A DNA stretch of 64,000 bases, taken from NCBI GenBank assembly GCA_900540205.1, contig UQER01000009.1:132-64131 (forward strand), read 5' to 3'. This stretch comes from an uncultured Porphyromonadaceae bacterium. GTDB lineage: Bacteria; Bacteroidota; Bacteroidia; Bacteroidales; Muribaculaceae. The position numbers were made by a program, and so were the translations under genes. Below the pieces are notes generated by a model, which was not told the origin of the DNA, searched no databases, and saw only the letters and a program-made list of their open reading frames with translations. Positions 14,521 through 23,944 of this stretch are shown piece by piece (position 1 is the first letter of the stretch; every line of letters starts with the position of its first letter).

Positions 14521-15243
14521 ATGAAAAAACTGTTGATAGCAATAGCGGCGTGTCTGTCGGTTGCATTGGCGTTCTCGGCCTTTGCAACCACAGCGAAGTC
14601 TGCGAAAAAAACTGAGCCGGAGGCACCCGATTTCGAGCGTATCAAAGCCGAGGTGTCCGATCCCAAATCGCAGTGGTATTATCCAAGACTCATGCAGCAG
14701 TATGAGCGTAACGAGACTGTGATGACTCTCGATGATTACAGGCATCTCTATTACGGATATCTCTTTCAGGAGGACTTCAACCCCTATCGCCACAACGAGG
14801 CCGTGACGCGCAATGAAGCGCTGTATTATAAAAACAATCACACTCGTGCAGAGCTTGATTCCATCATAACATACGCAAGGCAGGCCATTGACGACAATCC
14901 CTTCGACCTCAATCAGATTAATTTCCTGATTTATGCGTTGCGTGAACGGGGAAAGGTGAATCTCGCCAATATCTGGCAGTACAGGCTCAACCATCTGCTG
15001 CAGGCCATTGTGTCGAGCGGAACCGGAACCGACAAGGAGCATGCATGGTATGTGATAAACCCCCGGCATGAGTACAGTATAATCAATTTCCAGAATGCAG
15101 TTGTCAAGGACCAGCATTACGAGGAGCCTTATTTCGACTGCATGGAAGTGGAGAAAAAGAGCGGGAAGGAGAACGCCACCTACTATTTCAACATCCGCAA
15201 CCTGCTCGAGGAATATTATCGGAAATTTCCCGAGCAGATGTGA
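14521..15243 (+). CDS. Hypothetical secreted protein (possibly DUF4919-like)
   Basis: This is the MKKLLIAIAACLSVALAFSAFA signal-peptide start lying inside track ORF 14257-15243. The protein is rich in Y, N and E. The family assignment is uncertain. Confidence 0.5.
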   Translation: MKKLLIAIAACLSVALAFSAFATTAKSAKKTEPEAPDFERIKAEVSDPKSQWYYPRLMQQYERNETVMTLDDYRHLYYGYLFQEDFNPYRHNEAVTRNEALYYKNNHTRAELDSIITYARQAIDDNPFDLNQINFLIYALRERGKVNLANIWQYRLNHLLQAIVSSGTGTDKEHAWYVINPRHEYSIINFQNAVVKDQHYEEPYFDCMEVEKKSGKENATYYFNIRNLLEEYYRKFPEQM

Positions 15244-15287
15244 GGTTGAAGTCCTCGCCGCAAAATGAACCAATCAACAACCTACCG

Positions 15288-16286
15288 ATGAAAATTGCAC
15301 ATATCGATCTGGGCGACCGCCCTGTGATGCTCGCGCCGATGGAGGATGTGACTGACCGCTCGTTCCGGCTCATATGCAAGGAGCTGGGCGCCGACATGAC
15401 CTACTCCGAGTTTGTTTCGGCCGATGCATTGATACGCAATATCGCCGCCACTACCCGAAAGCTTCATATCGAACCCGCCGAGCGCCCCACGGCCATTCAG
15501 ATTTATGGCCGCGAGGTGGAGCCGATGGTGGAGGCTGCCAGAATGGTGGAGGCTGCCGGGCCGGATGTGATCGACATCAATTTCGGCTGCCCGGTGAAGA
15601 AGGTGGCAGGCAAAGGTGCCGGAGCCGGTATGTTGCGCGACATCCCAAAAATGCTCGAAATCACGCGGGCGGTTGTAAAGGCGGTCAACGTGCCTGTCAC
15701 GGTGAAAACGCGCCTGGGATGGGATCATGAACACCGTATAATTGTGGATTTGGCCGAACAGTTGCAGGACTGCGGCATTGCGGCGCTGACGGTGCACGGG
15801 CGCACGCGTTCACAGATGTACACCGGAGAGGCCGACTGGGAGATGATTGCCCGCGTAAAGGAGAATCCCCGCTTCCGCATCCCTCTGATCGGAAACGGCG
15901 ACATCACAACTCCGCAGAAGCTTGTGGAGGCGTTCAGCCGTTACGGCGTGGATGGTGTGATGGTAGGGCGCGCGGCCATAGGCAATCCGTGGGTGTTCCA
16001 CGACATGAAGCAGACTCTGTTGCATGGCAACGTGCCTGAACCTCTGAGCCTCGAGCGGAAATTTGAAATACTGCGCCGGCAGATCAACGAGAGCATCGAC
16101 CGTATCGACGAGTATCGCGGCATACTTCACATCCGCCGCCATCTGGCCGTGAGCGGTCTGTTCAAGGGGATTCCTTTTTTCCGCGATACACGCATAGCCA
16201 TGTTGCGTGCCAACACAAAGGACGAACTGTTCGGCATTATCGACATGGTGGAGGACAAACTGCGCGACGGCAGTGCGTTCATATAA
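15288..16286 (+). CDS. dusB: tRNA-dihydrouridine synthase (DusB-like)
   Basis: MKIAHIDLGDRPVMLAPMEDVTDRSFR is followed by the FMN-binding TIM-barrel motifs IDINFGCP and NGDI. The start is taken at the internal Met. Confidence 0.8.
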   Translation: MKIAHIDLGDRPVMLAPMEDVTDRSFRLICKELGADMTYSEFVSADALIRNIAATTRKLHIEPAERPTAIQIYGREVEPMVEAARMVEAAGPDVIDINFGCPVKKVAGKGAGAGMLRDIPKMLEITRAVVKAVNVPVTVKTRLGWDHEHRIIVDLAEQLQDCGIAALTVHGRTRSQMYTGEADWEMIARVKENPRFRIPLIGNGDITTPQKLVEAFSRYGVDGVMVGRAAIGNPWVFHDMKQTLLHGNVPEPLSLERKFEILRRQINESIDRIDEYRGILHIRRHLAVSGLFKGIPFFRDTRIAMLRANTKDELFGIIDMVEDKLRDGSAFI

Positions 16287-16317
16287 ATATTAATTAAGTG
16301 AATAAAATTATATAGCT

Positions 16318-17103
16318 ATGAAAATCAGGTTTTTAATGGTTTTGTCTCTGCTTGTGACGCTGTCGGCTTACGGCGCCGGTGACGAGCCTGTGCAGAAGTT
16401 TGAACTTGATGTAAAGGATTTCTCGCAGCTCGTGGTGGATGACGGCCTGAATGTGGAGTACCACAGTAATGACGACATGGCAGGGAAGGCTGTGTTCTCT
16501 GCTCCGAAAAGCATTGCCGACAAAATCCTGTTCGAGAACAACGGCAAAGGGAAACTGCTCATTCAGAAATCATTTCACGAGGAGACAGAACTGGTGTCTG
16601 ACCTTCCCACAATCAAGGTGTATTCACGCTTCCTGAAAAGTATAACCAACAACGGCGATTCCACTGTACGCGCTCTGGAGGTGCGTCCCACAATGGAGAT
16701 GAACGCAACGGTGGTTGGTAACGGGCGTCTGGTTGTGCGTGATGTAGACTGCTCCAAATTCAGCGGCAGCATAAAGACCGGGAACGGCACTCTGGTGGTG
16801 ACAGGCAAAAGCGCCGAAGCCGTGTTGAGCAACACCGGTACGGGTGCGATACAGGCCGATAATCTTCGTGCCGGCAACGTGTCGTGCCGCTTTTTCGGCA
16901 CCGGAACCACAGGCTGCTGGGCCACCGGCACGCTGACTGTTAAGGGGGTGATGAAAGGAAAGCTTTATTACCGCGACACCCCCGCACGCATCCGCAACTT
17001 CTCGGTCGGGGTGAAAATCTATTCGCTCGAAGGCACCGAGTGGCTGGGCGAGCAGGAGCCTGACCCCGATGGCGACAGCGGTGCGCCTGCCGATGAAAAG
17101 TAA
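16318..17103 (+). CDS. Secreted beta-helix protein, DUF2807/GIN head-domain-like
   Basis: 261 aa with a signal peptide. It has repetitive G-x-G strands (TGNGTLVVTGKSAEAVLSNTGTGAIQADNL). Confidence 0.5.
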   Translation: MKIRFLMVLSLLVTLSAYGAGDEPVQKFELDVKDFSQLVVDDGLNVEYHSNDDMAGKAVFSAPKSIADKILFENNGKGKLLIQKSFHEETELVSDLPTIKVYSRFLKSITNNGDSTVRALEVRPTMEMNATVVGNGRLVVRDVDCSKFSGSIKTGNGTLVVTGKSAEAVLSNTGTGAIQADNLRAGNVSCRFFGTGTTGCWATGTLTVKGVMKGKLYYRDTPARIRNFSVGVKIYSLEGTEWLGEQEPDPDGDSGAPADEK

Positions 17104-17128
17104 AGAATTCAGGCTGTTGTCTTAGTCA

Positions 17129-18616
17129 ATGAGCAGTCAGGACGCACCATTGAAAACCCTTACGGCCCGGTCGGTGAAATGGAATCTCATCGACCGCTTG
17201 TCGTCGCAGGTGCTCTATGGCATCACCGGAATAATTCTGGCCCGGCTTCTTTCGCAGGAGGATTTCGGCCTTGTGGGTGCCATCCTCGTGTTTCAGGCGT
17301 TCGCCTCGCTGATGGTCGACAGCGGATTCTCCTATGCGCTTATCCAGCGCAAGCACCCCACCCGGCTTGACTATTCCACCGTGCTGTGGTTCAACATGGC
17401 CGTGGCCGTGGCGCTTTATGTGGTGCTGTTTTTCTGCGCCCCGCTCATTGCCGATTGCTTTCAGGGCGACAGGCGTCTGGTGCCGTTGAGCCGGGTGATG
17501 TTCCTCTCGTTTATCCTGAATGCCTCGGCCATAGTGCAGACCAACCGTCTGATGAAGCGGATGGATGTGCGGATGGTGGCGGTTTCGAACGCGGCCGGTC
17601 TCGTGGCCGGAGCTATAGTGGGCATTACGCTGGCCGTGGCAGGGATGGGAGCATGGGCCATCGTTTGGCAGACACTTGCGCTGAATGCCGTCAAGAGCGC
17701 CGTGCTGTGGTTCACTTCAGGATGGTTGCCGCTGTGGCGGTTCTCCATGCAGTCTCTGCGCAGTTTTTTCAGCGTGGGCTCGAGCATGATGGCCTCTTCG
17801 TTTCTGAATGTGCTTTTCCAGAACATTTATACATTTTTCATAGGCAACCGGGCCGGACTTGTTCCGCTGGGCTATTACACACAGGCCGACAAATGGAGCA
17901 AAATGGGGATAACCTCCATCTCGCAGGTGCTCACATCCTCGTTTCTGCCGGCGTTGTCGGCCGTACAGGACGATGACGAGCGGTTTTCGCGTGCCTCGCA
18001 GAAAATGAACCGCTTTACGGCCTACATACTCATGCCAGCCATGGGGTTCCTCATCATAATGGCCACCCCGATATTCCACTGTCTGTTCGGCGAGAAATGG
18101 GATGCATCCATCCCCCTGTTCCAGCTGCTGCTTTTGCGCGGGGTGTTCACCGTGCTTACGGCGCTCTACAACAATTATCTCGTTGCAAAGGCCATGTCGA
18201 AGGCCGTGGTGGCGATGGAGGTGCTTCGCGACGGGGTGGCGCTTCTGCTGCTGGTGGCCTGTCTGCCTTTCATTGCCATGTCGCTACCGGGCAATCCCGT
18301 TTATGGCATTGAGCTGTTGCTTTACGGTCAGCTGCTGGCATCGGTTGTGGCATGGGCTGTGATGACGGTAAAGGTGGCGCGTGTCACCGGGCGCTCCCTG
18401 TGGCGGTTTCTTTCCGACAACGTGCCTTATGTGGCCGAGACAGTCCTGATCGGTGCGGTGATGTGGGTGGAGAGTCTGGTGATAGCCAACTGCTGGATTC
18501 TACTGTTTGCGCAGGCATGTACGGCACTGCTGCTCTACATCGGCGTGAACCATCTGCTACACTCCGTTATCCAGCGCGAGGTACTCGACTATCTCCGCGG
18601 CCGCTCTGCACTCTGA
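17129..18616 (+). CDS. MOP-superfamily oligosaccharide flippase (Wzx-like)
   Basis: 495 aa with 12-14 TM segments and polysaccharide-biosynthesis-protein-like composition. Confidence 0.7.
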   Translation: MSSQDAPLKTLTARSVKWNLIDRLSSQVLYGITGIILARLLSQEDFGLVGAILVFQAFASLMVDSGFSYALIQRKHPTRLDYSTVLWFNMAVAVALYVVLFFCAPLIADCFQGDRRLVPLSRVMFLSFILNASAIVQTNRLMKRMDVRMVAVSNAAGLVAGAIVGITLAVAGMGAWAIVWQTLALNAVKSAVLWFTSGWLPLWRFSMQSLRSFFSVGSSMMASSFLNVLFQNIYTFFIGNRAGLVPLGYYTQADKWSKMGITSISQVLTSSFLPALSAVQDDDERFSRASQKMNRFTAYILMPAMGFLIIMATPIFHCLFGEKWDASIPLFQLLLLRGVFTVLTALYNNYLVAKAMSKAVVAMEVLRDGVALLLLVACLPFIAMSLPGNPVYGIELLLYGQLLASVVAWAVMTVKVARVTGRSLWRFLSDNVPYVAETVLIGAVMWVESLVIANCWILLFAQACTALLLYIGVNHLLHSVIQREVLDYLRGRSAL

Positions 18617-18655
18617 TTCAGAATTTCAGGAAAAAGTGCTAACTTTGCAGCCGGA

Positions 18656-18994
18656 ATGAGAATGTTGAACAGGAATATAGCAACGCTGCTTATAGGTGTT
18701 TTCGCTTTCTTTTTTTGCGGGAACACAGTGTTCATACATTCCCATGTGGTCAACGGCGCCCGCGTGGTGCATTCGCACCCGTTTTTACCGGGCGACCATC
18801 ACGGCCATACACAGAATGCCCTGCATTTCATCGCGGCCTACAATCTTATGGCCGCCACAATGGAATGCGGAGAGACTGTGCATCTGCAGCAGCCCGCACG
18901 TGTATTGCAGGGTTGTGTGGAGTTGCAGCCGGTAATGGACTGTGCGCCGGCTCTCACCGATGTACGTCCCGTACGCGGCCCTCCCTCATGTTGA
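18656..18994 (+). CDS. Small His-rich membrane-anchored protein immediately upstream of the TonB-dependent receptor
   Basis: 112 aa. It has one N-terminal TM helix (IATLLIGVFAFFFCG) followed by a His-dense segment (HSHVVNGARVVHSHPFLPGDHHGHTQNALH). No family is recognised. There is a 114-bp gap to the receptor gene on the same strand. Confidence 0.45.
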   Translation: MRMLNRNIATLLIGVFAFFFCGNTVFIHSHVVNGARVVHSHPFLPGDHHGHTQNALHFIAAYNLMAATMECGETVHLQQPARVLQGCVELQPVMDCAPALTDVRPVRGPPSC

Positions 18995-19108
18995 TAATTC
19001 CAGACACTATAAAAATTAAACCGGATGCCAGGTTGCACCACGCGTGATGCGGTTATGCAGCTTCAGGTCCGGTTCACAGGATTATCAACCAAAATTCCAG
19101 CACAACAC

Positions 19109-21424
19109 ATGACAAGACATATTCTTATGTCGGCATTCACAGCAATGTCGGCACTTATGGCATATGCAGCTCCTGCAGGCGCCTCGGCCACGCCTTCGGA
19201 TGCAAATATCACAGGCCATGTAATCGACAGTTCCACAGGCGAGCATCTTGCTTACTGCACTGTAAGGATTGACGGTACCTCGATTGCCACACTCACCGAT
19301 GCCTCCGGTCATTACACCATCCGTGACCTTAAGCCTGGAAATTATGAGGTTGTGGCATCGTTCGTGGGCTATAAATCAGTGACACATAAAGTCGATGCCG
19401 AGCGCGACCGTACCATAGAGGTGAATTTTGACCTATCGCCCGACGCTTTCATGCTCGATCAGGTGGTGGTCACTGCGAGCAAGAGCGAACAGAAACGCCG
19501 CAACAGTCCGTCACTTGTGAGTGTCGCCTCGGCCAAGCTGCTCGAACAGGTGAGCGCCTGTTCGCTGGCCGACGGTCTGAGCTTCCAGCCCGGTGTGCGT
19601 GTAGAGAACGATTGCCAGAACTGTGGTTTCACGCAGGTGCGCATCAACGGTCTCGACGGTCATTACTCCCAGATTCTGATGAATTCACGTCCGGTGTTCT
19701 CGGCGCTTGCCGGGGTGTACGGTCTCGAACAGATTCCGGCCAATATGATTGACCGGGTGGAGGTGATGCGCGGCGGCGGTTCGGCCCTGTTCGGCTCCTC
19801 GGCCATAGGCGGCACAATCAACATCATAACCCGCGACCCGGTGGTGAATTATGCCGAAGCCGCCCACAGCCTCACCTCAGTAGGCATCACCGGCAAACTC
19901 GACAACAACACCACGGTGAATGCATCGGTGGTGAACGGCAACAACCGTCTGGGGCTTTTTGTCTACGGGCAGAACCGCGTACGCGACGGTTACGACCACG
20001 ACGGCGACGGTTTCACCGAAATAGCACAGCTTAAAACCCAGACCCTGGGTGCGCGCGCGTTCATGCGTCCGTCCGATGATACACGCCTGACGCTGGAATA
20101 TCACGGCACGCACGAGTACCGCCGTGGTGGCGACAATCTTGACCTGCAGGCCCATCAGGCCATGGTGGCCGAGCAGGTGGACCACAACATCCACGGAGGC
20201 GAGGCGTCGTTCGACCTGTGGTCGCGCAGCCGTGCCGACCATCTCAATGTATTCGCCGCCCTGCAGAACACCAAACGCAACAGTTATTACGGCAGTGAGA
20301 TGGATCCGAACGCCTACGGCACCACCCACGACCTCGTAATCAGTTCAGGCGCCCAATGGACCCACTCGTTCAGCCGCCTGTGGTTCATGCCCTCCGAACT
20401 CATTGCCGGAGTGGAGTACAATCATAACTATCTGCATGATGTCACCCTGAGTTATGACCACAATGTGGTGCAACGCGTCAACATCTACAGCGGTTATCTG
20501 CAGAACGAATGGCGCGACGACCGTTGGGGATTCCTCATCGGCTGCCGCATCGACAAAAACTCACTGATCCGCAATGCAATCCTGTCGCCGCGCGCAAACA
20601 TCCGTTTCAATCCGTCGGATAATTTCAATTTCCGTCTGTCCTACTCCACCGGATTCCGCTCGCCGCAGGCTTATGCCGAGGATTTCCACGTGGCCGTGGT
20701 AGGCGGTGAGCGTCTGGTCACCGTTCTGGCTCCGGGTCTGACACATGAGAAAAGCAACAGTTTCAGCGGTTCGGCCGACATGTATCACCGTTTCGGCAAT
20801 GTGCAGACAAATCTGATGATCGAAGGTTTCTACACCGACCTGCGCGATGTGTTCGCCCTGCGCAAGCTTGACGAACCCGACGATCAGGGCAATGCCGTGC
20901 TCGAGCGTTACAACGGTTCGGGCGCCACGGTGTGGGGCGTGAACGTCGAGGCGAAAGCCTCGTTTCCTGCAAGGGTCGACCTGCAGGCCGGTCTGACATG
21001 GCAGCGGAGCCGCTACAAAACTCCGGAATACTGGAGTGAGAACCCGGCGGTGGCTCCGGAAAAGCGGATGTTCCGCACCCCCGACCTCTATGGGTATCTG
21101 ATGATAAGTTACAACATTACCCGCAGTTTCCGTGCATCGCTCAACGGCACCTACAGCGGTTCGATGCTCGTGCAGCACATGGAGGGATCTGGCACGCCGG
21201 TGGATGTGGCCGAGACAACGCCCGATTTCTTTGACCTCGGATTCAAGCTCAACTACGAGTTCAAGATAATGCACAGCGGATGCATAGACCTGGGCATAGG
21301 CATCTCCAACATCTTCAACAGCTATCAGAAACATTTTGACCAGGGGTATCTGCGTGATTCGGGTTACATCTACGGCCCGATGCTTCCGCGCAGCCTGTCG
21401 GCGTCCGTGCGGTTCCATATCTGA
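19109..21424 (+). CDS. TonB-dependent receptor (carboxypeptidase-regulatory-like domain, then plug, then barrel; non-SusC type)
   Basis: The start is taken at MTRHILMSAF, the signal peptide. NITGHVIDSSTGEHLAYCTVRIDG is CarbopepD_reg-like. DQVVVTASKSE and VEVMRGGGSALFGSSAIGGTINII are plug motifs. The C-terminal ...RFHI ends in an aromatic barrel residue. Confidence 0.8.
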   Translation: MTRHILMSAFTAMSALMAYAAPAGASATPSDANITGHVIDSSTGEHLAYCTVRIDGTSIATLTDASGHYTIRDLKPGNYEVVASFVGYKSVTHKVDAERDRTIEVNFDLSPDAFMLDQVVVTASKSEQKRRNSPSLVSVASAKLLEQVSACSLADGLSFQPGVRVENDCQNCGFTQVRINGLDGHYSQILMNSRPVFSALAGVYGLEQIPANMIDRVEVMRGGGSALFGSSAIGGTINIITRDPVVNYAEAAHSLTSVGITGKLDNNTTVNASVVNGNNRLGLFVYGQNRVRDGYDHDGDGFTEIAQLKTQTLGARAFMRPSDDTRLTLEYHGTHEYRRGGDNLDLQAHQAMVAEQVDHNIHGGEASFDLWSRSRADHLNVFAALQNTKRNSYYGSEMDPNAYGTTHDLVISSGAQWTHSFSRLWFMPSELIAGVEYNHNYLHDVTLSYDHNVVQRVNIYSGYLQNEWRDDRWGFLIGCRIDKNSLIRNAILSPRANIRFNPSDNFNFRLSYSTGFRSPQAYAEDFHVAVVGGERLVTVLAPGLTHEKSNSFSGSADMYHRFGNVQTNLMIEGFYTDLRDVFALRKLDEPDDQGNAVLERYNGSGATVWGVNVEAKASFPARVDLQAGLTWQRSRYKTPEYWSENPAVAPEKRMFRTPDLYGYLMISYNITRSFRASLNGTYSGSMLVQHMEGSGTPVDVAETTPDFFDLGFKLNYEFKIMHSGCIDLGIGISNIFNSYQKHFDQGYLRDSGYIYGPMLPRSLSASVRFHI

Positions 21425-21532
21425 TTTTTGATTTGAATTTTCCTGTGCAAATCGCGCGGATTTAGCGTAAATTGTGCTAAATTTGGATTTCAAACAAATA
21501 AGTAGCTGTAAAACATTAAACCAGCCTGTCGC

Positions 21533-21871
21533 ATGTCGGTAAATAAAGTGATACTTGTGGGAAATGTGGGGAGGAATCCGGAGATAAAATATGTCGGGAG
21601 CCGTCCGTATGCCACCTTCTCGCTTGCCACGTCCGACCCCGCCTATACCACAGCACAGGGTGTGCAGGTGCCCGAACGCACCGAATGGCACAACATAGTG
21701 ATGTGGGACCGCCATGCCGAGACGGCTGAACGCTACATCACAAAAGGCACAAAGCTATATATCGAAGGGAAATTGCGCACGCGGGCATGGCAGGACGCCA
21801 ATGCCATAAAGCGGTCGGTTACGGAGATTGTGGTCGACACGTTCGACATCCTCTCCCGTCCGCAGCAATGA
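21533..21871 (+). CDS. ssb: Single-stranded DNA-binding protein (short form without an acidic tail)
   Basis: 112 aa OB fold with VILVGNVGRNPEIKY and WHNIVMWDRHAETAERYITKGTKLYIEGKLRTRAW. There is no C-terminal D/E/IPF tail. Confidence 0.8.
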   Translation: MSVNKVILVGNVGRNPEIKYVGSRPYATFSLATSDPAYTTAQGVQVPERTEWHNIVMWDRHAETAERYITKGTKLYIEGKLRTRAWQDANAIKRSVTEIVVDTFDILSRPQQ

Positions 21872-21940
21872 TGCCGCCCGTACCGCAGCCGCAACACAGC
21901 ATGTTGCCGAAAAATGACAATAAATTTATAAATTCACGAT

Positions 21941-23944
21941 ATGGAAAAAAGTAAAACCGCTATGCCGCCCGCACCCGAGGCGGAGGGATTCGCCAACGAT
22001 GTGGATCCTGTGGAACTGCCCGAAAACGCGTTCCGCGAACTCGGCGCCGATGAGCAATACCGCCCGCTGATGCATCCGGCGCGCCAGTACCGTGAGGTCA
22101 CGGTCTATTCCGTGCTGATGGGTCTGGTGCTCTGCGTCATCTTCAGCGCCGCGGCTGCCTATCTCGGGCTTAAGGTTGGGCAGGTGTTCGAGGCCGCCAT
22201 CCCCATCTCTATCATTGCAGTGGGTCTGTCGAGCGCCCTGAACAAGAAGAATGCCCTCGGGCAGAATGTAATCATACAGAGCATCGGAGCATGCTCTGGC
22301 GTGATTGTGGCGGGAGCCATTTTCACACTTCCGGCTCTCTACATCCTTCAGGCCAAGTATCCCGAGATTTCGGTGAACTTCTTCCAGATATTCCTCAGCT
22401 CTCTGCTCGGCGGTGTGCTCGGAATCCTGTTCTTCATCCCCTTCCGAAAATATTTCGTGAAGGACATGCACGGCAAATACCCCTTCCCGGAGGCTACCGC
22501 CACCACTCAGGTACTCGCAAGCGGACAGACCGCCGGAGCTGCCGGCGGCTCACAGGCCAAGACTCTCGTCATAGCCTCGCTGATCGGTGGTATATACGAC
22601 TATGTAGTTGAGATCTTCGGCTTCTGGGCCGGAACGCTCACAACCACGGTCGGGAGCTGGGGTGAAGCCATTGCCGCAAAGACAAAGCTTGTGCTGAGCT
22701 GCAACACAGGAGCCGCCGTGCTCGGTCTGGGCTACATCATCGGCTTGCGTTACGCCTTCATCATCTGCGCCGGTTCGTTCTTTGTGTGGTGGGTGATTAT
22801 CCCCCTGATGGGAACATACGGCAATGCAGAGATTGCGGCCATGAGCTCCAACGAGATTTTCAGCAATTATGCCCGCATGATCGGTATCGGCGGTATCGCC
22901 ATGGCCGGTGTCATCGGCATCGTCAAGTCGTGGCCCATCATCCGTCAGGCAGTCGGGCTTGCAGGCCGTGAGTTCAAGGGTGGTGCGGCAGCAGCCGAAC
23001 GTCCGCAGCGCTGGCAGTGGGACATATCGATGAAGCACATAGTGTTCTTCATCGGTTTGGCCCTTGTTGCCGTGTTGCTGTTCTTCCGTTTCGGTGTCAT
23101 CGACAGCTGGTGGCAGGCCATCATCGCATGGGTGGTGGTTACCCTTATCGCCTTCCTGTTCACCACCGTTGCGGCCAATGCCATCGCCATAGTGGGTTCA
23201 AATCCTGTTTCGGGCATGACGCTCATGACCCTTATCATAGCATCGGCCATCTTCGTGGCCATCGGTCTTAACGGAACTTCCGGCATTGTGGCCTCGATGG
23301 TTATCGGAGGTGTGGTTTGCACCGCACTCTCGATGGCCGGCGGCTTCGTCACCGACCTCAAGGTTGGATACTGGCTTGGCTCGACCCCACGCCGTCAGGA
23401 ACAGTGGAAATTCCTCGGTACACTGGTGTCGGCAGCCACCGTCGGCGGTGTGATTCTGGTGCTCAACCAGGTGTACGGCTTCTCGGGTGAGAATGCCCTT
23501 GTGGCACCTCAGGCCAACGCCATGGCCAAGGTCATCGAGCCGCTAATGATGGGTGGCGACACCCCCTGGATTCTTTACATGACCGGCGTTGTTCTCGCTC
23601 TGCTGCTCAACTGGCTCGGCGTTCCGGCCTTGGCATTCTGCCTGGGTATGTTCATACCCCTGTCGCTCAATACACCGCTCCTTGTAGGCGGTGCCGTGGC
23701 ATGGTTCGTGGGTAACAGCTCTAAGGACAAGAAAGTGAACGAGGCACGCCGCGACCGTGGCACACTCATCTCCTCCGGCCTCATTGCCGGGGGCGCCCTG
23801 TTCGGTGTGTTTGCCGCCCTTACCCGCTTCTTCGGCTATGAATATGTATGTGGAGTGTCGGCCGGCATGTTGCAGGTCTATGGCCTCATCGCTTATGCGC
23901 TCCTCATAGCCTACCTCTGGTGGTCCTCCCTCCGCGCCAAATAA
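21941..23944 (+). CDS. OPT-family oligopeptide transporter
   Basis: 667 aa, polytopic, with an OPT-like N-terminus and organisation. Confidence 0.75.
   Translation: MEKSKTAMPPAPEAEGFANDVDPVELPENAFRELGADEQYRPLMHPARQYREVTVYSVLMGLVLCVIFSAAAAYLGLKVGQVFEAAIPISIIAVGLSSALNKKNALGQNVIIQSIGACSGVIVAGAIFTLPALYILQAKYPEISVNFFQIFLSSLLGGVLGILFFIPFRKYFVKDMHGKYPFPEATATTQVLASGQTAGAAGGSQAKTLVIASLIGGIYDYVVEIFGFWAGTLTTTVGSWGEAIAAKTKLVLSCNTGAAVLGLGYIIGLRYAFIICAGSFFVWWVIIPLMGTYGNAEIAAMSSNEIFSNYARMIGIGGIAMAGVIGIVKSWPIIRQAVGLAGREFKGGAAAAERPQRWQWDISMKHIVFFIGLALVAVLLFFRFGVIDSWWQAIIAWVVVTLIAFLFTTVAANAIAIVGSNPVSGMTLMTLIIASAIFVAIGLNGTSGIVASMVIGGVVCTALSMAGGFVTDLKVGYWLGSTPRRQEQWKFLGTLVSAATVGGVILVLNQVYGFSGENALVAPQANAMAKVIEPLMMGGDTPWILYMTGVVLALLLNWLGVPALAFCLGMFIPLSLNTPLLVGGAVAWFVGNSSKDKKVNEARRDRGTLISSGLIAGGALFGVFAALTRFFGYEYVCGVSAGMLQVYGLIAYALLIAYLWWSSLRAK

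Follow-up and report, generated by a model that had tools for sequence, protein, structure and literature searches.

Small proteins encoded ahead of proteobacterial copper receptors and copper-detoxification genes have been recognized as cis-acting regulatory nascent peptides, not partner proteins, as described for CruR and CutF (PMC9426467; bioRxiv 10.1101/2025.02.05.636593). CruR of Bordetella pertussis (Bp2923, DUF2946) is an exported open reading frame (ORF) of 145 amino acids (aa), in which a CXXC motif lies 45 residues before a RAPP sequence, a spacing kept to within 1 to 2 residues in >2000 homologues (Roy et al. 2022, PMC9426467). RAPP stands three residues before the stop codon, and a 162-bp intergenic region separates the ORF from bfrG, the gene of a TonB-dependent transporter (PMC9426467). 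Without copper, the stall at RAPP prevents Rho-dependent termination; copper acting through CXXC relieves the stall, and bfrG is turned off. The CruR protein is barely detectable and acts in cis (PMC9426467). CutF, a DUF2946 protein of Rhodobacter capsulatus, responds in the opposite sense: copper in the periplasm binds the exported part of the nascent chain and prolongs the stall, and the stalled ribosome melts a stem-loop masking the initiation region of cutO (bioRxiv 10.1101/2025.02.05.636593). Thus, one design serves both a metal-repressed importer and a metal-induced detoxification gene. Here, an ORF of similar layout was analyzed in a 64,000-nucleotide stretch of DNA from an uncultured bacterium of the Muribaculaceae (Bacteroidota), referred to as the window (contig UQER01000009.1 of assembly GCA_900540205.1, positions 132 to 64,131). 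The ORF, hereafter the leader, encodes 112 aa and directly precedes a TonB-dependent receptor gene. On balance, and with moderate confidence, we regard the leader as a cis-acting arrest peptide of the RAPP/RGPP class that couples transition-metal availability to expression of the downstream receptor.

RAPP is a ribosome-arrest motif characterized both by experiment and by structure (PMC10951233). Arrest is most robust at the cores RAPP and RGPP and resists elongation factor P (EF-P) (PMC12992588, Fujiwara et al. 2025). Both are strongly depleted from bacterial proteomes, and the exceptions cluster at the C-termini of small secreted or membrane proteins. The genes behind such small secretory ORFs encode, among others, TonB-dependent receptors, adaptors of resistance-nodulation-division (RND) pumps, CusA/CzcA, and copper-related proteins, and the ORFs show strong enrichment ahead of the receptor, RND adaptor, and CusA/CzcA genes (PMC12992588). 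The leader carries RGPP at residues 107 to 110 of 112, near the C-terminus of a protein of <300 aa. It has an N-terminal localization signal in the hydrophobic segment at residues 8 to 27 (AlphaFold2 helix 2-24), and the same-strand gene behind it belongs to an enriched class (TonB-dependent receptor here, RND adaptor or CusA/CzcA in relatives). The leader thus has all descriptive features of the RAPP/RGPP class, and its translation is proposed to be arrested at the motif. The same combination of an N-terminal export signal and a C-terminal RAPP-like core is found in ApdA, ApdP, ApcA, and SecM, and for stalls of this type force on the nascent chain is proposed as the modulator (PMC7897499, PMC10951233).

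The leader shares several features with CruR. Both are small exported ORFs that head an operon directly before a TonB-dependent transporter, and both hold a ligand motif at a fixed distance from a C-terminal R-A/G-P-P near the stop codon, with a poorly conserved spacer between. Both are followed by a C-rich intergenic region, and cis action, shown for CruR, is proposed for the leader. The ligand motif differs, with CXXC and a 45-residue spacing in CruR and six His and a spacing of about 55 residues (53 to 57) in the leader family. In addition, the host phylum of the leader is Bacteroidota, and its metal is probably not copper. CutF (PMC9973294) heads a detoxification gene, cutO, while relatives of the leader head CzcCBA operons, so that a receptor or an RND pump follows the leader. 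Co-translational export with periplasmic metal sensing while the C-terminus is still in the ribosome, as in CutF, is also proposed for the leader. CutF combines a CXXXC motif with an EF-P-sensitive PPP stall, whereas the leader combines six His with RGPP, a core reported to be EF-P-resistant, and the stem-loop proposed for the leader family is a prediction, made for about half of the loci. The DUF2946 profile (PF11162) had no match to the leader protein at E<=1 and was absent from the families found among 87 members of the leader family. The Cys motifs of DUF2946 proteins (CXXC or CXXXC) have no counterpart there either, since no Cys outside the membrane helix is conserved among the 87. Like DUF2946 proteins, members of the leader family head metal-homeostasis operons (CusA/CzcA-class efflux operons in Alistipes, Bacteroides, and Odoribacter). 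An initial annotation, made from the window's sequence, had drawn a positional analogy to the small proteins of proteobacterial copper receptors, which holds for DUF2946 proteins such as CruR. It had also called the leader unrelated to them in sequence; this is right as far as DUF2946 homology goes (hhalign) but overlooks the shared C-terminal RAPP/RGPP arrest motif.

The leader family has in part been seen before. HSHP-type strings in the supplementary tables of PMC12992588 are members of it, listed as anonymous rows before TonB-dependent receptors and RND adaptors. Thus, the motif-based survey swept the family up, neither delineating nor discussing it; the six-His signature, the 53- to 57-residue ruler, and the split between importers and exporters are not delineated there, and its arrest tests covered only Streptomyces peptides and CruR. 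In the literature library searched, no paper was found to describe the family.

Signature of the leader family

The leader protein (MRMLNRNIATLLIGVFAFFFCGNTVFIHSHVVNGARVVHSHPFLPGDHHGHTQNALHFIAAYNLMAATMECGETVHLQQPARVLQGCVELQPVMDCAPALTDVRPVRGPPSC) was compared with 87 family members that are 23 to 46% identical to it. Columns H28, H30, H39, S40, H41, H51, and R107 are invariant, and P42, H49, P109, and P110 are kept in at least 90% of members. The six family His are laid out as HxH-x8/9-HSH(P)-mostly x7-HxH, and this cluster (residues 28 to 51) is proposed as the ligand-sensing module. Where the initial annotation counted nine His in a stretch of 30 residues, that stretch holds eight (residues 28, 30, 39, 41, 48, 49, 51, and 57), and nine is the number for the whole protein. 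The C-terminal Cys cluster that it pointed out does exist in the window, with four Cys in the last 42 residues (C71, C87, C96, and C112), but these are not conserved family-wide; C21, in the membrane helix, is kept among close relatives.

In the 224 fetched members that have both the His pattern and an RxPP, the spacing between the final invariant His and the Arg of the terminal motif was measured. It was 53 to 57 residues in every one (224/224), with a mode of 55. Two spacing classes (53 to 56 and 63 to 66 residues) were considered and rejected, since the full His pattern gives a single mode at 53 to 57. The linker in this spacer changes fast (nonsynonymous divergence [dN], 0.49 against the related locus L001), and its length is held fixed. 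The terminal motif is RAPP in 146 of the 224 members, RGPP in 69, RSPP in 4, and RDPP in 3, with another residue in the remaining 2; RAPP or RGPP thus accounts for 215/224, and the tail after PP is mostly 2 to 6 residues long. In a six-frame translation of the 64-kb window, the RGPP of the leader is the only RAPP or RGPP inside a real ORF. The coordinates of all features are given in Table 1.

Table 1. Features of the leader-receptor locus, numbered by position in the window
Feature	Position	Strand	Basis or remark
Bacteroides-type -7 promoter box, TAACTTTG	18640..18647	+	Read from sequence; ends 8 nt before leader ATG
Leader ORF of the His6-RxPP family (no curated name)	18656..18994	+	ATG start, 112 aa
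N-terminal hydrophobic helix, residues about 8-27 (signal anchor or signal peptide)	18677..18736	+	AlphaFold2 helix 2-24, pLDDT >90; segment kept family-wide
His cluster HSH-x8-HSH(P)-x7-HGH, residues 28-51 (putative sensing module)	18737..18808	+	Invariant columns in 87 sequences; beta-hairpin modeled at 28-39
Spacer, residues 52-106: short conserved helix (I59, N63), then variable linker	18809..18973	+	Length and dN analysis
RGPP, R107-G108-P109-P110, putative ribosome-arrest motif	18974..18985	+	Two codons ahead of stop
5' arm of predicted long-range helix, GUUGAUAAUUC	18990..19000	+	Spans stop codon 18992-18994
Predicted inner hairpin, intergenic	19019..19074	+	RNAalifold consensus of four related loci; compensatory changes in L001
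3' arm of predicted long-range helix, GGAUUAUCAAC	19079..19089	+	20-30 nt upstream of receptor ATG
TonB-dependent receptor, 771 aa, putative regulated gene	19109..21424	+	Pfam CarbopepD_reg_2, Plug, TonB_dep_Rec_b-barrel

Several sub-lineages vary this pattern. One receptor-linked group (L005 6001-6351, P0020, P0176, and P0192) ends in G-L-D-P-P and has no Arg; for L005-type leaders, the predicted helix to the downstream start region was also not found. The group may have decayed or may act in a different way. A leader ending in HLRSPPC(H/Y)VC is found on dozens of metagenome contigs (L033-L090, e.g., L036 4489-4836), many of them labeled human gut, where it heads an RND (CzcCBA-like) operon. 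The RSPP core was only partially permissive for arrest in published assays. The linker of every sampled RND-linked leader (L006, L008, L010, and L031-L090) contains a strongly hydrophobic stretch resembling a second transmembrane (TM) segment, with a 19-residue Kyte-Doolittle maximum of at least 1.97; in all receptor-linked Muribaculaceae leaders (window and L001-L027) the maximum is at most 1.46, and no such hydrophobic stretch is present. As a marker of exporter-wired leaders, the hydrophobic linker was discarded: two leaders that have it stand before TonB receptors in the supplementary tables of PMC12992588.

The leader as a conserved gene

The 112-aa ORF is present exactly as initially annotated, and it does not overlap the upstream flippase gene, which stops at 18616. 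The single N-terminal TM helix of that annotation is likewise borne out by the hydrophobic segment and by the AlphaFold2 model. Arg2 and Arg6 ahead of the helix suggest, by the positive-inside rule, an N-in orientation.

A word-indexed search returned nine close relatives of the leader protein, the lowest at 42% identity. With a family profile, 1079 proteins matched at E<=0.001 among 1.84 billion representatives clustered at 50% identity; among the matches listed, most were 100 to 125 aa long, and the majority aligned over nearly the full length. A second indexed search with the 87-sequence profile recovered 1409 clusters at 90% identity. The family thus comprises >1000 clusters of about 110 to 120 aa from Bacteroidales, with sources named as Muribaculaceae, Alistipes, Odoribacter, Tannerellaceae, Bacteroidaceae, and Bacteroidales and one member listed in a Parabacteroides genome. 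Wherever a source gives a name, it is "hypothetical protein", with a single, clearly mistaken exception. The identical leader sequence is recorded on 192 contigs, and metagenome contig L011 is 100% identical to the window across the ORF.

The absence of a recognized family, as initially annotated, was confirmed: the leader protein had no Pfam-A or NCBIfam match even at E<=1, and scans placed none of the 87 members in any Pfam or NCBIfam family. Weak matches to NF053668 (HypB_prefix_2) occurred in 33 of the 87, with a best E value of 6.7e-6. We take these as the His-rich N-terminal region of the hydrogenase nickel incorporation protein HypB. They are probably compositional, yet compatible with a His ligand set of the Ni/Zn type. 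The Bacteroidota small-protein families HYC_CC_PP (NCBIfam) and DUF6769, considered as candidates, were dropped when neither matched in the Pfam/NCBIfam scans.

Could the ORF be spurious, produced by chance composition where the receptor gene has its promoter or 5' region? Gene callers do sometimes miss it (at L096, for example), and it carries no family annotation. This idea has nonetheless already been refuted by conservation and retains a vanishingly small probability. More than 1000 clusters share the length and the motifs, the reading frame and motifs are retained at 25 to 45% identity, codons 1 to 63 have a dN of 0 against the relative L001, and the ORF occupies the same position before two kinds of operon.

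The leader was also compared with L001 2303-2641 codon by codon. Codons 1 to 63 have a synonymous divergence (dS) of 0.05 and a dN of 0, and linker codons 64 to 106 have a dS of 1.57 and a dN of 0.49; dS is 0.33 to 0.52 in the receptor and flippase genes on either side. Such uneven synonymous divergence is suggestive of mosaic recombination inside the leader or of a constraint acting on its 5' portion at the RNA level. Two database proteins, P0006 and P0008, are chimeric: their N-termini, which include APAWCIRT, come from the +1 frame of the His-coding region (the ORF at window 18696-18935), after which they continue in the leader frame. These chimeras point to strain or assembly indels or to miscalled starts.

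Downstream genes and genomic context

The receptor lies 114 bp from the leader and is of the CarbopepD_reg type, as initially annotated. Its ATG at 19109, which defines the 114-nt gap, is backed by the N-termini of orthologues, the longest ORF beginning at 19025. Plug (PF07715, 3.4e-21) and barrel (PF00593, 1.7e-26) domains were found together with an N-terminal CarbopepD_reg_2 domain, as expected for a TonB-dependent receptor. No NCBIfam model, including the substrate-specific ones, matched the receptor at its cut-off. Its solved-structure matches are only distant (CirA, BtuB, PhuR, and others) and point to no particular substrate.

Loci were collected from genome and metagenome collections starting at the small protein, and metagenomes were scanned with a 10-sequence alignment. 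Among the classified loci, a receptor orthologue lies downstream in 23 (62 to 99% identity, about ten lineages), which belong to Muribaculaceae wherever a taxon is given. In 56, mostly from one abundant human-gut lineage, the downstream gene encodes the adaptor of an RND operon. In two further loci, the downstream ORF matched neither the receptor nor the adaptor reference, and ten ended before a readable downstream gene. The RND operons, in records labeled Alistipes, Bacteroidaceae/Bacteroides, or Odoribacter, comprise genes for adaptor, permease, and outer-membrane factor. Against TIGR00914 (CusA/CzcA heavy-metal efflux), for which the curated cut-off is 701, the permease scored 925 and 906 bits, and its TM4 motif is DFGIIVDGAIVMMET. 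Between CzcA and CusA, this TM4 resembles the divalent-cation type.

These contexts bear on what the leader would sense. One alternative is an arrest peptide that monitors Sec/YidC export or insertion, or envelope stress, in the manner of SecM, MifM, VemP, ApdA, and ApdP, with the His serving tunnel or translocon contacts and metal playing no part. A targeting helix followed by a C-terminal RGPP is indeed the architecture of monitoring substrates (PMC7897499, PMC10987492), and the products proposed to be regulated here are envelope proteins. However, the leader differs from such substrates in its conserved ligand-binding module and in its downstream genes, which are not localization machinery: no sec or yidC gene follows in any classified locus, where one receptor orthogroup or CzcCBA-type operons are found instead. 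Moreover, six His placed at a set spacing from the proposed stall site have the pattern of CruR, CutF, and the predicted metal-sensing Streptomyces peptides. We therefore hold Sec/YidC monitoring to be improbable.

A second alternative keeps arrest and changes the ligand to heme or another His-ligated cofactor, the receptor then being a heme or porphyrin receptor of heme-dependent anaerobes. Pairs of His can ligate heme, and heme or hemoglobin receptors are among the weak NCBIfam and PDB matches of the receptor, all far below cut-off; matches to CirA, BtuB, and the enterobactin receptor are as good or better. No hmu-type genes adjoin the receptor, and the other context of the family, a CusA/CzcA-class pump with a DFG..DGA motif in TM4, points to metal cations. 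Heme sensing is thus very improbable, more so than Sec/YidC monitoring.

The pairing of leader and receptor was examined from both sides. Starting from the small protein, the pair was kept in every Muribaculaceae locus found, and since its flanks are unrelated between Muribaculaceae lineages, leader and receptor move as a unit. In the reverse test, four receptor orthologues were chosen by receptor similarity alone, and the leader lay upstream in three of them, including L096, where no gene had been called. A profile search and a check of the gene pair across relatives, both proposed with the initial annotation, gave a large family and a pair kept in Muribaculaceae. The opposite outcome, in which relatives keep the receptor and lack the ORF, was borne out in a single lineage, L097, against the three of four orthologues chosen blind that have it. 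In L097 (938-1501), no leader ORF precedes the receptor orthologue (67% identity, cluster P0328, seen on 263 contigs), and the place is taken by a divergently oriented 115-aa gene rich in Ala, Lys, Glu, and Gln. The leader is thus common but dispensable, as would be expected of an accessory regulator more than of a structural partner that the receptor cannot do without. The closest relatives (L091-L094) retain the window's order of genes at 15240-23944, namely dus, DUF2807, Wzx-like flippase, leader, receptor, SSB, and OPT transporter.

The initial annotation suggested that the leader could be a metal-sensing or metal-handing partner protein of the receptor. The link to metal and to the receptor stands, given the six conserved His, the CusA/CzcA contexts, and the kept pair; the partner role is what changes, a cis-regulatory arrest peptide being most likely instead. 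In its fullest form, the partner idea is that of a stable, membrane-anchored periplasmic metal-binding protein (a metallochaperone or sensor) that exchanges metal with the receptor or with CzcCBA, with RGPP as a structural or interaction motif. The placement of six invariant or nearly invariant His after a membrane anchor would suit this role, as would the tie of the family to two metal-transport systems and the weak HypB_prefix_2 matches in 33 of 87 members. It is also in line with the AlphaFold2 model, made with the 87-sequence alignment, which has a helix (2-24), a beta-hairpin (28-32/35-39), a second helix (53-67), and coil for the remainder, at a mean pLDDT of 79. On the other hand, half of the protein, the linker, varies in sequence and not in length, which is unusual for a partner and typical of a ruler. 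Ordinary proteins strongly avoid the stalling RAPP/RGPP (PMC12992588), and the analogous CruR is barely detectable as a protein (PMC9426467). It is not easy to see how one partner could serve an importer in the outer membrane as well as an RND exporter in the inner membrane, and the receptor orthologue at L097 does without the ORF. Because of the fixed-length, sequence-free linker, the invariant RxPP near the stop codon, the importer and exporter contexts, and L097, a leader peptide fits better than a stable partner, which we consider unlikely, although less so than the sensing of export or of heme.

Promoter, intergenic region, and predicted mRNA structure

TAnnTTTG is the established Bacteroides promoter consensus. 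The position of the matching box in the window would imply a very short, almost absent 5' untranslated region of the leader mRNA. Boxes were first found by eye and then counted: of 16 loci, 12 have a TAnnTTTG-like box that starts 14 to 35 nt ahead of the leader ATG, and 14 lack one in the intergenic region, against a background of 24 boxes per 64 kb on the + strand of the window. With a box before the leader and none in the intergenic region, the receptor has no recognizable promoter of its own. Scans for sigma-70 promoters and intrinsic terminators gave nothing above chance; the sigma-70 model is not the right one for promoters of Bacteroidota. Within 18300-19400, Rfam had no match at E<=1, either to riboswitches or to other RNA families. 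Metal-responsive operators of the Fur/Zur type, proposed with the initial annotation, were not found either: 18540-18670 has no inverted repeat, and the window has no E. coli-type Fur box, which is a weak test for Bacteroidota.

C exceeded G in 15 of 16 intergenic regions (e.g., 9:1, 19:4, and 16:3), the bias of the window's own 3' ORF and intergenic region being only mild. In cruR, the region with C>G was mapped as a Rho-utilization site (PMC9426467).

The end of the leader ORF is predicted to pair with the region just ahead of the receptor start. In the RNAalifold structure, an 11-bp long-range helix, two pairs of which have compensatory changes in L001, encloses a hairpin; the whole structure has six pairs with compensatory changes, all from L001. 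The long-range pairing predicted for the window is stronger than that of 98% of shuffles of the intergenic region. Across 14 distinct loci, the stall-proximal end of the ORF is predicted to pair over at least 7 bp with the last 40 nt before the downstream ATG in seven, beating at least 95% of shuffles of the intergenic region, where about 0.7 loci would be expected by chance (the window and L001, both in the set, are close relatives). These seven include both receptor-type and efflux-type loci.

Bacteroidota do not rely on Shine-Dalgarno pairing. The usual footprint of a stalled ribosome is about 16 nt; with Pro109 (18980-82) in the P site, it would extend over the 5' arm to about its midpoint.

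The leader-adaptor intergenic region at L008 (6340-6544) is 205 nt long and contains a long, near-perfect hairpin (GGGGCAGAUUGAAUCUGCCCG … CGGGCGGAUUCAAUCCGCCCC) and, 86 nt ahead of the ATG of the adaptor gene, a second TAnnTTTG box.

Proposed mechanism and points against it

The following model would account for regulation by the leader. Transcription would start from the promoter directly before the leader, with the receptor on the same transcript. The N-terminal helix would target the nascent leader to the Sec translocon, and the six-His module (residues 28 to 51) would be threaded to the periplasmic face. On reaching R107-G108-P109-P110, the ribosome would stall. The 53- to 57-residue spacer is about as long as the tunnel plus the translocon, and by this geometry, which we infer, the His module would have just emerged in the periplasm at the moment of the stall. 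Metal binding would then alter folding of the module, and thereby the pulling force on the chain and the lifetime of the stall. The sensed metal is most likely Zn2+, judging from the six His and the CzcA-type context, with Ni2+, Co2+, and Cu2+ as further candidates.

The stalled ribosome could act on the receptor in two ways. Positioned on the 5' arm, it would open the helix that otherwise pairs 20 to 30 nt upstream of the receptor start and so free the initiation region; in addition, it would shield the C-rich, G-poor intergenic RNA and so block Rho. Through either route, or both, stalling would raise receptor expression. The importer logic would be that of CruR, with metal relieving the stall and the receptor turned off; this polarity is assumed for the receptor by analogy.

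Several results weigh against this model. An hhalign comparison with three DUF2946 sequences gave a probability of 1.3%, with only the RAPP end aligned; with no detectable DUF2946 homology beyond that end, the analogy to CruR and CutF is one of design only. In the Pfam and NCBIfam scans, no metal-uptake genes adjoin the receptor in the window. The same type of leader stands before an importer and an exporter, which would require opposite metal responses in different members. A few members have no Arg in the terminal motif (LDPP type) or have RSPP. At the RNA level, the covariation evidence comes from only four closely related sequences, and about half of the loci (L002, L020, L014, L005, and L008) lack the predicted helix. 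Together with intergenic lengths of 35 to 205 nt, this means that no single downstream mechanism is supported family-wide, and the downstream mechanism may differ between lineages. Finally, the moderate AlphaFold2 confidence (mean pLDDT, 79) leaves room for a mature product that folds and functions in its own right. A dual role, regulatory as a nascent chain and functional once mature, would combine the arrest peptide with such a product.

Significance

The principle of the arrest leader is already known, having been published in 2022-2025; what the family would add is a new ligand chemistry, a new phylum, a strict ruler, and naturally occurring importer and exporter versions. By analogy, the leader family is rated here as a sequence-independent, His-based Bacteroidales family built on the CruR/CutF plan. 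A bolder proposal, which we put forward only tentatively and hold as less probable than arrest at this locus itself, is that it is the first family of His-based metal-sensing arrest peptides, with no Cys motif and unrelated to DUF2946, in which a ruler of about 55 residues would let a divalent metal, such as Zn2+ or Ni2+, be read where the translocon opens into the periplasm during the wait at RGPP. In this proposal, the sensor would work in a phylum without Shine-Dalgarno-led initiation, would be wired in opposite ways to an importer in Muribaculaceae and to CzcCBA exporters in Alistipes, Bacteroides, and Odoribacter, and would form a main post-transcriptional metal switch of abundant gut commensals.

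With the present analysis, a family of >1000 "hypothetical" clusters, sometimes skipped by gene callers, has been delimited. If the proposed role is true, the principle of CruR and CutF would be extended to a six-His ligand chemistry, probably to a new metal, and to a phylum with unusual translation initiation. The family would also supply one sensor in two naturally occurring forms, wired to an importer or to an exporter, and by comparing them the step from ligand binding to release or prolongation of the stall could be studied. Members occur in Muribaculaceae, Alistipes, Bacteroides, and Odoribacter and include a very common human-gut lineage. If the leaders act as proposed, abundant gut Bacteroidales would control both metal uptake and metal efflux by a nascent-peptide sensor in place of a classical repressor or two-component system.

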